Source of the DNA: Escherichia coli
Lineage (GTDB): Bacteria; Pseudomonadota; Gammaproteobacteria; Enterobacterales; Enterobacteriaceae
Length of the DNA stretch: 64,000 bases
Strand: one strand, 5' to 3'
NCBI RefSeq assembly: GCF_030384885.1
Contig: NZ_CP128613.1
Shown here: positions 53,101 to 59,100 of the stretch, in pieces
How the letters are laid out: each line of letters starts with the position of its first letter
Numbering within the stretch: position 1 is the stretch's first letter
Position numbers: made by a program

Positions 53101-56100
53101 ATGGAAAGACCAGAGGTGCCGCCGGAGAAGCGTCCATCGGTGATCAGCGCACAGGCTTTGCCGAGCCCCATTGATTTCAGGAAGCTGGTTGGGTAGAGCA
53201 TTTCCTGCATGCCAGGGCCGCCTTTCGGGCCTTCATAGCGGATCACCACCACATCGCCCGCGACAACTTTGCCACCGAGGATCGCTTCTACCGCGTCGTC
53301 CTGGCTTTCGTACACTTTCGCCGGGCCGGTGAATTTGAGGATGCTGTCATCGACGCCCGCGGTTTTCACAATGCAGCCGTTTTCTGCGAAATTACCGTAG
53401 AGCACCGCCAGACCGCCGTCTTTGCTGTAGGCGTGTTCCAGCGAGCGGATACAGCCATTGGAGCGATCGTCGTCCAGCGTATCCCAGCGGCAATTCTGCG
53501 AGAATGCCTGTGTAGTACGAATGCCCGCAGGGCCAGCGCGGAACATATTTTTTACCGCATCATCCTGGGTCACGACGATGTCGTATTGTTCCAGTGTTTG
53601 CGGCAACGTCAGGCCAAGTACGTTTTTCACATCACGGTTCAGTAACCCCGCGCGATCCAGTTCGCCGAGAATACCGATAACACCACCAGCACGGTGAACA
53701 TCTTCCATATGGTATTTCTGGGTGCTCGGCGCGACTTTACACAGCTGCGGTACTTTGCGGGAGAGCTTATCGATATCACTCATGGTGAAGTCGATTTCCG
53801 CTTCCTGTGCCGCCGCCAGCAGGTGAAGTACGGTGTTAGTCGATCCGCCCATCGCGATATCCAGCGTCATGGCGTTTTCAAACGCCGCCTTACTGGCGAT
53901 GTTACGCGGCAGTGCGCTTTCATCATCCTGTTCGTAGTAACGTTTGGTCAATTCAACAATGCGTTTACCGGCATTGAGGAACAACTGCTTACGGTCAGCG
54001 TGGGTTGCCAGCAGCGAGCCGTTGCCCGGCTGCGACAGGCCCAGAGCTTCGGTCAGGCAGTTCATCGAGTTAGCGGTGAACATCCCGGAACACGATCCGC
54101 AGGTTGGACAGGCGGAACGTTCAACCTGATCGCTCTGGGAGTCAGAGACTTTCGGGTCTGCGCCCTGGATCATCGCATCAACCAGATCGAGCTTGATGAT
54201 CTGATCGGACAGTTTGGTTTTCCCGGCCTCCATCGGGCCGCCGGAAACAAAGATCACCGGAATATTCAGGCGCAGGGAAGCCATCAGCATCCCCGGGGTG
54301 ATTTTGTCGCAGTTAGAGATGCAGACCATGGCGTCGGCGCAGTGGGCATTGACCATATACTCAACGGAATCAGCGATCAGTTCGCGAGATGGCAGTGAAT
54401 AAAGCATCCCCCCGTGGCCCATAGCGATCCCATCATCCACCGCAATGGTATTGAACTCTTTGGCAACGCCGCCAGCCGCTTCAATTTGTTCGGCGACCAG
54501 TTTACCGAGATCGCGCAGATGAACGTGACCCGGTACAAATTGGGTGAACGAGTTCACAACCGCGATAATCGGCTTACCGAAATCGGCGTCGGTCATTCCG
54601 GTGGCGCGCCACAGCGCACGAGCACCCGCCATATTACGACCATGAGTGGTGGTGGCGGAACGGTACTTAGGCATACTTTATTTACTCCCAGTGTCTGTCT
54701 CGTAAATGGGACGGTGCGTGCCGTCCCATTTTTTGTATTTATTGATTAACTTGATCTAACCAGCCCCATTTATCTTCGGTTTCACCAGTGAAGAGGCCGA
54801 AGAAGGCTTGCTGGATGCGTTTGGTAACCGGGCCACAACGGCCTTCGCCTACCTGGATACCATCTACACTGCGCACTGGCGTGATTTCAGCCGCAGTACC
54901 AGACATAAACACTTCATCCGCCAGGTACAGTGATTCGCGCGACAGCACCTGCTCACGCACTTCAATTCCCAGTTCTTTCGCCAGTTTGATGATGGCGTCA
55001 CGGGTAATCCCCGGCAGCGCGGATGAGGTGAACGGTGGGGTAAACAGCACACCGTCTTTCACTTCAAACAGGTTTTCGCCCGCACCTTCAGAGATATAAC
55101 CATTCACGTCCAGCGCGATACCTTCCTGATAACCGTGGCGGCGCGCTTCGCTACCCACCAGCAGAGAAGAGAGGTAGTTACCACCGGCTTTTGCCGCGGT
55201 TGGGATGGTGTTTGGCGCTGCGCGGTTCCAGGAGGAAACCATTGCATCGATCCCCTGCTCCAGCGCTTCTGCACCCAGATACGCTCCCCACGGGAAAGCG
55301 GCGATAATCACGTCGGTTGAGTATCCCGCTGGCGGGTTTACGCCCATGCCAACATCACCGACGAAGATCAGCGGACGGATATAGGCGCTGGTGAGATTGT
55401 TTTTGCGGATCACGTCACGACAAGCTTCCATCAGCTCATCAATGCTCTGCGAAACCGGGAAGCGATAGATTTTGGCGGAGTCATGCAGACGCTGCATATG
55501 CTCACGATGGCGGAATACAACCGGTCCTTTGTGTGAGTCGTAGCAACGGATGCCTTCAAAAACCGAGGTGCCATAGTGCAGCGCGTGCGACATCACATGC
55601 ACCTTCGCGTCTTCCCAGCGAACCATTTCCCCATTGAACCAAATGTAATCAGCTTTCTTCGTGGTCATTTTTATATTCCTTTTGCGCTCAGGCGCGGATT
55701 TGTTGTGATGTGGTTGTGCTCTGGCAGATGGCAACGTGTGCGACGTCCACCAGTTTATTTAACTGACTAAACAGTAAGTCGACCGACCGTGGGCTGGCAA
55801 CGGTCAATTCGATATTTATATTTTGTGCATCGCTGGCGGCGGCCATATTCATTGAGCAGACGTGGAAACCACGATGACGCACCACGCGTAAAACACGTTC
55901 TAAGGTTTCCGGATTGAAGCGAGCCGATACATTGACCTGATGTTGCATCATGATAATTTCTCCAACATTTCTGAATTACTGGCGCCAGGCGGCACCAGCG
56001 GCCAGACGTTCTCAAGTTCGTCGATTGAGACATGAAGCAGGTATGGCCCATCACTGTTCAGCATGGTGTCGAGTGCCGCTTCAACCTGGTCTTTACGGGT

Positions 56101-59100
56101 GATGTGTTGGCCAGGGATGCCGAAGGCGCTGGCTAACATGAGGAAATCGGGATTATCGGTAAGGGTGGTTTCGCTATATCGTTCCTGGAAAAACAGTTGC
56201 TGCCATTGTCGAACCATCCCTAACCGTTGGTTATCGAGTAAGACGATTTTCAACGGTAACTGCTTGCGTTTTACGGTGCCCAGCTCTTGCACATTCATCA
56301 TGAAAGAGCCGTCACCGGAGATACAGACGACGGTATCGTTCGGTCGCGCAACTTGCGCACCAACCGCTGCCGGTAAACCAAACCCCATGGTGCCTAATCC
56401 GCTTGAAGTGATGAAATTTTCCGGGCGAGTGTGGACGATGTGCTGCGCGGCCCACATCTGGTGCTGCCCTACATCTGTGGTTACTACACAATCTTCAGGT
56501 TTACGATCCGACAGTTGTTTTAACAACAACGGCGCGTAGATAGCATCACCGGGATGGTTGTAACGCCATGCATGTTCATCACGCAGCTGCGCGCAGTGTT
56601 GCTGCCAGTCATTGATATTCAACGGCTGTCGTAATGCCGGTAACAGAGCATTTAAATCACCCTGCAATGCCACATGCGCCTGACGCAGCTTGTTCATTTC
56701 TGCCGGGTCGATATCCATATGGATAACACTGGCGTGTGGTGCGAAGGTGTTCAGTTTGCCAGTTACCCGGTCATCAAAACGTGCACCCACGGCGATCAAC
56801 AAGTCACATTCCTGCACCGCAAAGTTCGCCGCTTTGGTGCCGTGCATCCCCAGCATGCCCAGATAGTACGGATAATCCGCATCAACTGCGCCAAGTCCTT
56901 TCAGCGTGCAGGTGGCAGGCATTTTTGTGGCAGCGAGAAATTCACGCAAAGCCGAAACTGCCTGCGCCATGCCCACGCCACCGCCAACGTACAGCATCGG
57001 TTTTTGCGCTTTTGCCAGCATCTGACGCGCTTGCTCGACTTCGGTATGTGGGAAAGTCACTTCGTTTTCAACAGTGGTGAACCACGGTTCCAGATCGCCG
57101 CTGGCTAACTGGATATCTTTTGGAATATCGACCAAAACCGGACCAGGACGACCAGAGCTGGCGACATCAAACGCTTCGGCCATGATACGCGGTAACTCTT
57201 CCAGTGATTGCACCAGGAAACTGTGCTTGGTGCAGGCTAACGACAACCCCAGAATATCCACCTCCTGAAATGCGTCAGTGCCGATAAACGGTGCGGATAC
57301 CTGACCGGTGATAGCAACAACGGGGATGGAATCTAACAGCGCGTCCGCAAGCCCGGTTATCAGGTTGGTTGCACCAGGACCAGACGTGGCGATGCAAACG
57401 CCAGTTTTGCCGGTAGCACGGGCATAACCGATAGCCGCCATTGCTGCACCTTGCTCGTGTCGGCACAGCAAGTGTTCCACGCCACCGTCATACAATGCAT
57501 CGTAAACCGGCATAATTGCGCCACCCGGATAACCGAAAACGGTATTCACACCTTGTGCCCGCAACGCATGTACCACCCACTGTGCGCCATTCATAGTTAG
57601 TTCCCCGTCCTGAATCTTGAGAAACAGAATTTTGTGCTGTTATTCATTGTCTGCTCCTCGGTTATGTTTTTAAGGTCAAAAAAAACCCCCGGACCTTTCG
57701 GTGCGGGGGTCTTAGTTCGTTAAGGCTTGATCTCTAAGCCTTTCCTCGTCCAAGTGCAGCCCCGCACGGTGGGATAATAATCACCACCACGCTAATCACG
57801 ACCAGGCTAATCACTCGTAGAAGGGCTGTCATTTTGTCTTTTCTTGCATCTTGTTCGAAGGAATGCCTAAAGAGTTACCATAGATTTTGCGAATAGCACA
57901 AGATATTTTTTGGCCGATTTTTATGATGCCTTTAATAATTTCAATAGAAATTGTTGTTTTTTAAAAAGAAAACAGTGAGTGAAAAAAATTCAATTTCAGT
58001 ATGAATGTTGTTCCCTTCCTCGTAGTTAATCCTTTGTCCACTGCATTTTTGCGAGCATCGTTCCACCGCCAGAACAACTCAACTTCACTTGCACAAATAA
58101 ACAGGAATCAGCCACTAAAATTCACGAATTAGCGGGCTACAGCAGCGATATCTTATGCACATAATGGCGACTCAAGGAGGGCTTATGTCACTGTCAATTG
58201 TTCATACCCGCGCAGCCCTGGGAGTAAATGCGCCCCCAATCACTGTTGAGGTACATATCAGTAAAGGTCTACCAGGCTTAACGATGGTGGGCTTACCAGA
58301 AACAACGGTAAAAGAAGCTCGCGATCGCGTGCGCAGCGCCATTATCAATAGCGGATATGAATATCCGGCGAAAAAAATCACCATCAACCTTGCTCCAGCC
58401 GATCTGCCAAAAGAAGGGGGACGATATGATTTGCCTATCGCTATTGCGTTACTGACGGCCTCAGAACAGCTTACAGCCAATAAGTTAGATGAATATGAAT
58501 TAGTCGGAGAACTGGCGCTTACAGGCGCTCTGCGTGGCGTTCCCGGCGCAATCTCCAGTGCAACTGAAGCTATTAAGTCGGGCAGAAAAATTATCGTCGC
58601 GAAAGATAACGAAGATGAAGTGGGGCTAATTAACGGTGAAGGATGCCTGATAGCCGATCATCTGCAGGCTGTCTGCGCGTTTCTGGAAGGTAAGCACGCT
58701 CTCGAACGTCCGAAACCAACTAATGCAGTATCCCGGGCGCTACAACATGATCTCAGTGATGTTGTCGGTCAGGAGCAAGGAAAGCGAGGACTGGAAATTA
58801 CCGCCGCTGGCGGGCACAACCTTTTACTGATTGGACCGCCGGGAACAGGTAAAACAATGCTCGCCAGCCGTATTAATGGCCTGTTGCCAGATTTAAGCAA
58901 TGAAGAGGCACTGGAGAGCGCTGCGATATTAAGTCTGGTAAATGCTGAATCAGTACAAAAACAATGGCGGCAGCGCCCGTTCCGCTCACCGCATCACAGT
59001 GCGTCGTTAACTGCGATGGTGGGCGGTGGTGCAATTCCAGGGCCTGGTGAAATTTCGCTGGCGCATAACGGCGTGCTTTTTCTTGATGAGCTACCTGAAT

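Follow-up and report, generated by a model that had tools for sequence, protein, structure and literature searches.

The window analyzed here, a stretch of 64,000 nucleotides from Escherichia coli contig NZ_CP128613.1 (RefSeq assembly GCF_030384885.1), carries ilvG, the gene for the catalytic (large) subunit of acetohydroxy-acid synthase II (AHAS II, also called acetolactate synthase II), as one continuous reading frame that is free of the frameshift present in the laboratory strain K-12. With a probability that we put at about 95%, the gene is an ordinary and functional allele in its ancestral form, as carried by a natural E. coli isolate. Specifically, the list of open reading frames (ORFs) for the window contains a minus-strand ORF of 548 codons (1647 bp) at 55948–57594 that begins with ATG and whose sole stop is its terminal TGA; an earlier interpretation made from the DNA alone (the sequence-only reading) had given the same coordinates and length without naming the strand. 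A frameshift or premature stop that this interpretation might have overlooked was looked for, and neither the ORF listing nor alignments with other alleles revealed an internal stop or frameshift anywhere in 55948–57594. At the base composition here, a stop-free run of 548 codons has a chance probability of P = 3.7e-11, and when the gene was shuffled 2000 times no such run exceeded 235 codons, so the ORF is not there by chance. Its length of 1647 bp recurs in each of the nine other intact alleles with which it was compared, including those of Escherichia albertii and Salmonella enterica, and its sequence is identical to the RefSeq coding sequence (CDS) WP_106907695.1 of E. coli strain 2013C-4282, which the Prokaryotic Genome Annotation Pipeline (PGAP) calls intact.

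Identity of the ilvG product and the lesion in K-12

The product had been read as the AHAS II large subunit, and profile searches agree. The NCBIfam equivalog model NF006524 for the AHAS II catalytic subunit matches residues 1–547 of the 548 with 1072.5 bits against a cutoff of 738, and all of the models for AHAS III fall under their own cutoffs. Three Pfam domains of thiamine diphosphate (ThDP)-dependent enzymes are present, each scoring far over its cutoff: PF02776 (TPP_enzyme_N) at residues 1–116, PF00205 (TPP_enzyme_M) at 186–321, and PF02775 (TPP_enzyme_C) at 374–522. The motif that binds ThDP and magnesium, GDG-X24-(D/N)N, is found as GDG...DN at residues 427–455. Also present are E47, which we take to be the catalytic glutamate of AHAS II, and F109, M250, R276, and W464, which we take to be residues that set substrate specificity. 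By every sequence criterion checked, then, the ORF belongs among the AHAS II catalytic subunits.

We found no structure of E. coli AHAS II; the closest solved chain that the search gave is that of IlvB, the catalytic subunit of AHAS I (PDB 6LPI). IlvB and the AHAS enzymes of plants and yeast share with IlvG the same fold family, which depends on ThDP and flavin adenine dinucleotide, and the alignment to IlvG spans residues 2–544 (E = 1.9e-162). IlvB is a paralogue and not an orthologue of IlvG, and AHAS I is inhibited by valine through IlvN (PMC8605374).

That K-12 ilvG is frameshifted, as the sequence-only reading had stated, is borne out by alignment to strain MG1655. The orthologous MG1655 gene (b4488) is annotated as a pseudogene and, at 1645 bp, is 2 bp shorter than ilvG of the window. 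The pairwise alignment sets the 2-bp gap at gene positions 977–978, and this alignment together with one of ten alleles places the missing bases within an ATAT run at gene positions 977–980 (56615–56618 of the window, minus strand). In the window both AT units are kept and the frame reads on as ...QPLNINDW..., whereas K-12 past the gap reads ...PLNQ and meets a stop at codon 328, leaving a truncated product of 327 aa. The premature TGA occupies positions 982–984 of the K-12 gene, in agreement with PMC8605374. The nine other alleles have AAATATCAATGAC or GAATATCAATGAC at this site, where K-12 has AAATCAATGA; the Salmonella sequence is diverged (GAAGATCGACGC) but keeps the same length. Because the outgroups retain the longer form, the K-12 state is a deletion of one AT unit, and the outgroup alignment gives no support to the description of the lesion in PMC3032704 as "two separate base pair insertions". 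As cited in PMC8605374, the frameshift was first described in 1981 by Lawther et al. Neither of the marks of the K-12 pseudogene, one AT unit lost at 977–980 and a TGA at codon 328, is found in ilvG of the window.

To gauge how common the two states are, we searched 5,426 complete E. coli genomes by megablast with 100 bp of K-12 sequence centred on the deletion. A match of at least 99% identity is possible only where the 2 bp are absent; a 2-bp gap limits identity to 98.0%. The K-12 junction was matched at this level in 340 of the 5,426 genomes, and at least 4,580 aligned over a 102-bp span, indicating that the two bases are present; in a further 506, nearby substitutions are too many for megablast to seed at the junction. 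About 94% of the genomes thus have no K-12 junction (the sum of the at least 4,580 aligned and the 506 unaligned). Among the 65 junction records that we viewed by name (the 60 best matches and five spread-sampled ones), every one is either a K-12 laboratory derivative or of unstated lineage, and none is an evident natural isolate; the 60 best comprise MG1655, C600, J53, DH5alpha, DH1, RR1, HMS174, NEB 5-alpha, and strains like them, together with experimental derivatives and a small number of records whose lineage is unnamed. Judged by these matches, the 2-bp deletion is a marker of the K-12 lineage and an intact ilvG is the norm for E. coli. Since E. albertii and Salmonella also have an intact ilvG of 1647 bp, the intact state is ancestral. 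The sequence-only reading had treated the open frame as worth remarking on, and here the frequencies speak against it: an intact ilvG outside K-12 is both already known and ordinary, described for B strains (PMC3446290) and for W, B, and Crooks (PMC3032704). The finding consequently has little significance in itself, an intact ilvG being the E. coli default and the K-12 frameshift a textbook lesion of a laboratory strain.

We note that one record in the genome set, E. coli NCCP12480 (NZ_CP068680.1), aligns only to the first 954 bp (58%) of ilvG, and that the feature under this match is annotated as a "thiamine pyrophosphate-binding protein" adjoining ilvA. This arrangement suggests a natural deletion running from inside ilvG to ilvA, a rare route to loss of AHAS II outside K-12.

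Predicted expression and valine response

Published work ties the K-12 frameshift to sensitivity to valine (PMC8605374, PMC3446290, bioRxiv 10.1101/2025.10.31.685768). AHAS I and AHAS III are inhibited by valine and AHAS II is not, so that K-12, which forms no AHAS II, is starved of isoleucine once valine is added; in addition, the frameshift is polar on the downstream genes of the operon (PMC8605374). Removing either of the first two bases of the premature stop, T (982) or G (983), restores the frame and allows growth at 1 mg/ml valine (PMC8605374). In human urine acetolactate synthase II is the sole isozyme that is active, and repair of the frameshift in MG1655 rescues growth there (bioRxiv 10.1101/2025.10.31.685768).

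In the window the genes around ilvG have the canonical arrangement. The leader peptide gene ilvL (57734–57832, minus strand; 32 aa; NCBIfam NF007744, 81.9 bits against a cutoff of 59) is identical to that of K-12 and contains five Ile, four Leu, and six Val codons. Downstream of it lies the ilv attenuator (57678–57711, minus strand), a G+C-rich terminator hairpin followed by U8, whose DNA is the same as in K-12. A simple terminator scan missed the attenuator on account of a mismatch in its stem, and it was identified in its place by direct folding and by identity to K-12; the fold of the leader RNA that includes the hairpin has z = -4.47. The 5′ untranslated region (UTR) and leader of the operon as a whole (57614–57903, minus strand) match Rfam RF02744 with 157.1 bits against a gathering score of 88. 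Next comes ilvX (57597–57647, minus strand), an ORF for a 16-aa peptide that is identical to its K-12 counterpart, is annotated in both K-12 and 2013C-4282, and ends 2 nt before the ATG of ilvG. On the other side of ilvG, its stop and the start of ilvM overlap as ATGA; ilvM (55688–55951, minus strand) encodes the 87-aa small subunit of AHAS II (NCBIfam NF008362, 133.9 bits against a cutoff of 68; ACT_5 domain). The IlvL, IlvX, IlvM, and IlvE proteins are those of K-12, and the DNA does not differ from K-12 at any base between 57884 and the ilvG ATG.

Given the K-12-identical leader, attenuator, ilvX, and ilvM, the ATGA overlap, and the conserved catalytic residues, we infer with some force from the literature that the strain from which the window comes expresses IlvGM, is resistant to valine, and has ilvEDA free of polarity. 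For enzyme activity, valine insensitivity, and growth phenotype in particular, the expectation is drawn from PMC8605374, PMC3446290, and bioRxiv 10.1101/2025.10.31.685768. In the mechanism that we propose, the ilvL-ilvX-ilvG-ilvM-ilvE-ilvD-ilvA operon would be transcribed on the minus strand, and its expression would be set by attenuation, through translation of the Ile-, Leu-, and Val-rich ilvL across the terminator hairpin. IlvG (548 aa) and IlvM (87 aa) would then assemble into AHAS II, the only one of the three acetohydroxy-acid synthases of E. coli that valine does not inhibit. With valine in excess, the strain would keep forming acetohydroxybutyrate and hence isoleucine, which would make it valine-resistant, and translation of ilvG to its end would spare ilvEDA the kind of transcriptional polarity seen in K-12. 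The strain is thus predicted to tolerate valine and to tolerate niches rich in it, such as urine (bioRxiv 10.1101/2025.10.31.685768), and the case illustrates that metabolic models based on K-12 mis-predict the branched-chain amino-acid physiology of natural isolates.

Several observations weigh against an ordinary functional allele, and they bear mostly on the possibility that the ORF is open but the allele dead or silent, through a missense change or a promoter defect, and the strain still sensitive to valine. IlvG of the window differs at 11 residues from the enzyme that has been studied biochemically (that of K-12 with its frame restored), and one of its residues, A184T, is private to the window strain among the seven E. 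coli IlvG alleles compared; that these changes are neutral is suggested by sequence comparison. In the promoter region upstream of ilvL, about 11 substitutions relative to K-12 are spread across 57884–58060 and may affect expression; a simple promoter scan also picked out no obvious sigma-70 site for the operon. Set against these points is the pattern of substitution in ilvG, where synonymous and non-synonymous codon differences stand at 48:6 relative to the closest relative and 81:11 relative to K-12 (about 88% of the substitutions are synonymous), which indicates purifying selection. Every catalytic and cofactor residue checked is conserved. Residue 184 lies in an inter-domain linker that is variable, being gapped and unconserved where it is aligned with IlvB of E. 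coli (6LPI) and with plant AHAS, and every other variant residue also occurs in further natural intact alleles. As for expression, the promoter-region variants are common to close natural relatives, with no difference at all from strain 2020CK-00188 across 57600–58200, and the leader, the attenuator, and the ribosome-binding region are identical to those of K-12. We therefore regard a dead or silent allele as very improbable.

An open ilvG could also have arisen within K-12 itself, by a secondary mutation that restores the frame, as in valine-resistant revertants of the ilvG+/ilvO type, which arise readily through 1-bp deletions beside the premature stop (PMC8605374). Because such revertants have an open ilvG too, the open frame alone does not prove, as the sequence-only reading had supposed, that the strain is not a K-12 derivative. 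The conclusion itself holds on other grounds, and an intact ilvG helps to confirm it. The window has the ancestral ATAT at the site and no compensating indel; its ilvG differs from that of K-12 by 96 substitutions (94% identity), and most of the flanking sequence is 1–3% diverged from K-12. Over 25 kb it matches E. coli 2013C-4282, the strain to which the window is assigned and a clinical isolate from human stool in the USA, at 100% identity, and it carries an intact yifN and a 1.57-kb islet next to ilvA (both described below) that are missing in K-12. A K-12 revertant has, on this evidence, a negligible probability, the smallest of any of the alternatives. Only slightly less far-fetched is the idea that the continuity of ilvG is an artefact of assembly, with a true frameshift hidden by an error of sequencing or polishing. 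Base counts in repeats can go wrong in long-read assemblies, and it is in a short ATAT repeat that the K-12 lesion sits; there is, however, no homopolymer at the site, PGAP calls the deposited CDS intact, the length of exactly 1647 bp is shared with the nine other intact alleles, outgroups included, and it is improbable that an error would restore a perfect frame of 548 codons by chance.

Allele classes and recombination within ilvG

The exact allele WP_106907695.1 occurs in one of the 5,426 complete genomes. Its nearest alleles are those of strains Z0117EC0005 (98.9% identical) and 2017-02-2CC (98.7%), and the closest relative of the region as a whole is 2020CK-00188, which is 99.1% identical over the 93% of 25 kb that aligns. 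Comparison with 2020CK-00188 exposes a patch within ilvG, at gene positions 111–661 (56934–57484, minus strand), that contains 55 differences; outside it the two alleles differ once, at position 1494, with essentially no differences on either side. The patch is 99% identical to the allele class of E2348/69 and Z0117EC0005. Further along, ilvG positions 701–1300 match 2020CK-00188 and 2017-02-2CC exactly but share only about 93% identity with K-12, O157, and E2348/69. Over positions 101–700, identity between the class to which the window belongs (that of E2348/69) and the class of K-12 and O157 is only about 92%, whereas K-12 and E. albertii, a separate species, share 95.7%. Overall, ilvG alleles of E. 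coli differ by up to 6.5%, and by about 9% in segments, the changes being nearly all synonymous; the divergence between allele classes is as large as the distance between E. coli and E. albertii in this gene.

By its pattern of segment matches, ilvG of the window is an ordinary mosaic, formed by recombination within the species between deep allele classes, and the conclusion that the allele is intact and functional is unaffected by this. The recombinant mix of common classes, together with A184T, accounts for the exact protein being private to one genome. An origin of ilvG in a foreign species or a cryptic clade was considered and rejected, given the nearest alleles at 98.9% and 98.7% and the match of each segment at 98–100% in common E. 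coli. We think it improbable, if somewhat less so than a dead allele, that one of the classes derives from an unsampled Escherichia lineage, or is maintained by balancing selection because a few linked amino-acid differences (at residues 114, 146, 214, and 221) change the properties of AHAS II.

The ilvG genes of B/REL606, W, Crooks, CFT073, E2348/69, and O157:H7 have the same 1647 bp, 548 aa, and ilvLXGMEDA context as that of the window, at 94–99% nucleotide identity, and the literature describes these strains as ilvG-intact and tolerant of valine (PMC3446290, PMC3032704, bioRxiv 10.1101/2025.10.31.685768). The window allele differs from these intact alleles in its recombinant combination of segments and in the private A184T. 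The K-12 gene, by contrast, combines its 96 substitutions with the loss of an AT unit and the 327-aa product, and K-12 is valine-sensitive (PMC8605374). In both outgroups, ilvG again encodes 548 aa in 1647 bp, the operon order is the same, and there is a 32-aa leader and a 16-aa ilvX, at a nucleotide identity in ilvG of 93.8% for E. albertii and 83.4% for S. enterica.

A further genome, GCA_014105935.1, deposited as Escherichia fergusonii, was dropped as an outgroup because its locus is E. coli-like, which left E. albertii and Salmonella in that role. Over most of its length, the 20-kb rho-ilv locus of this genome is 97–100% identical to the window, against 86–96% for E. albertii. From these identities, the genome would appear to be either mislabelled or E. 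coli-like, or one in which the whole region has been exchanged between species.

Surroundings of the operon and other features of the window

The remaining genes of the operon follow ilvM on the minus strand. These are ilvE (54739–55668), for the branched-chain amino-acid transaminase of 309 aa (TIGR01122, 489.8 bits; identical to K-12); ilvD (52824–54674), for dihydroxy-acid dehydratase of 616 aa, which is in the ORF list and is annotated in the identical 2013C-4282 record; and ilvA (51277–52821), for threonine deaminase, the last gene of ilvLXGMEDA, as assigned from the ORF list and the annotations of collinear loci. One flank of the operon holds yifB, maoP, hdfR, a pair of tRNA genes that the collinear annotations give as Trp and Asp, and rRNA genes; the other holds ilvY and ilvC.

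The genes ilvY and ilvA converge on an AT-rich islet of 1.57 kb (49717–51276) that lies between their ends. Its GC content is 32–43%, compared with 55–60% in its flanks; it was found in only two of the 5,426 complete E. coli genomes and lacks the flanking repeats that a mobile element usually has. It contains three ORFs. The first (49727–50116, plus strand) encodes 129 aa with an N-terminus resembling a signal peptide, the second (50135–50725, plus strand) encodes 196 aa, and the third (50732–51205, minus strand) encodes 157 aa and directly follows ilvA, whose strand it shares, past a perfect hairpin with a 12-bp stem at 51241–51268. At the same junction E. albertii and a Salmonella serovar have related but differently composed sets of genes, to which that of E. 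albertii adds a HigB/HigA-like pair; K-12 has a 51-bp element resembling a repetitive extragenic palindromic (REP) sequence, and 2020CK-00188 has nothing. Searches of the three ORFs against Pfam, NCBIfam, PADLOC, and PHROG found no assignment. Identification of the first ORF as a Tai4 immunity protein of the type VI secretion system is unsupported, the sole signal being a sub-threshold Pfam match (E = 0.0047; 17.9 bits, where the cutoff is 27.1) and none of 26 homologues carrying any Pfam domain. The third ORF belongs to a family without a Pfam entry that is scattered in Paenibacillus, Flavobacterium, and Synergistaceae; its AlphaFold2 model is all-beta, with a predicted local distance difference test (pLDDT) score of 92, and its matches to beta-propeller blades are only weak (template-modelling score about 0.4).

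Elsewhere in the window, yifN, which encodes a protein with a PemK/MazF-like toxin domain (PF02452, E = 8.6e-11), is an intact ORF of 149 codons at 46273–46722 on the plus strand. In K-12 it is an annotated pseudogene of 449 bp, and alignment indicates a 1-bp deletion in K-12 that leads to a stop at codon 73, a second K-12 lesion that is not present in the window.

The region 19448–22148 contains an insertion sequence (IS) of the IS3 family, with orfA (HTH_Tnp_1) at 20935–21282 and orfB (rve integrase core) at 21402–22148. It is immediately preceded by an aslA-like sulfatase ORF of 488 aa (19448–20914), which the element may truncate. A match to the Rfam small RNA (sRNA) isrC (20967–21089, 145 bits) falls within orfA and for this reason probably stems from the IS, not from an sRNA gene in its own right. 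Two further Rfam matches reach gathering level at their expected conserved positions, both on the minus strand: the sRNA GlmZ at 18817–19023 (218 bits) and the trxA 5′ UTR thermometer at 40942–41041 (78.8 bits).

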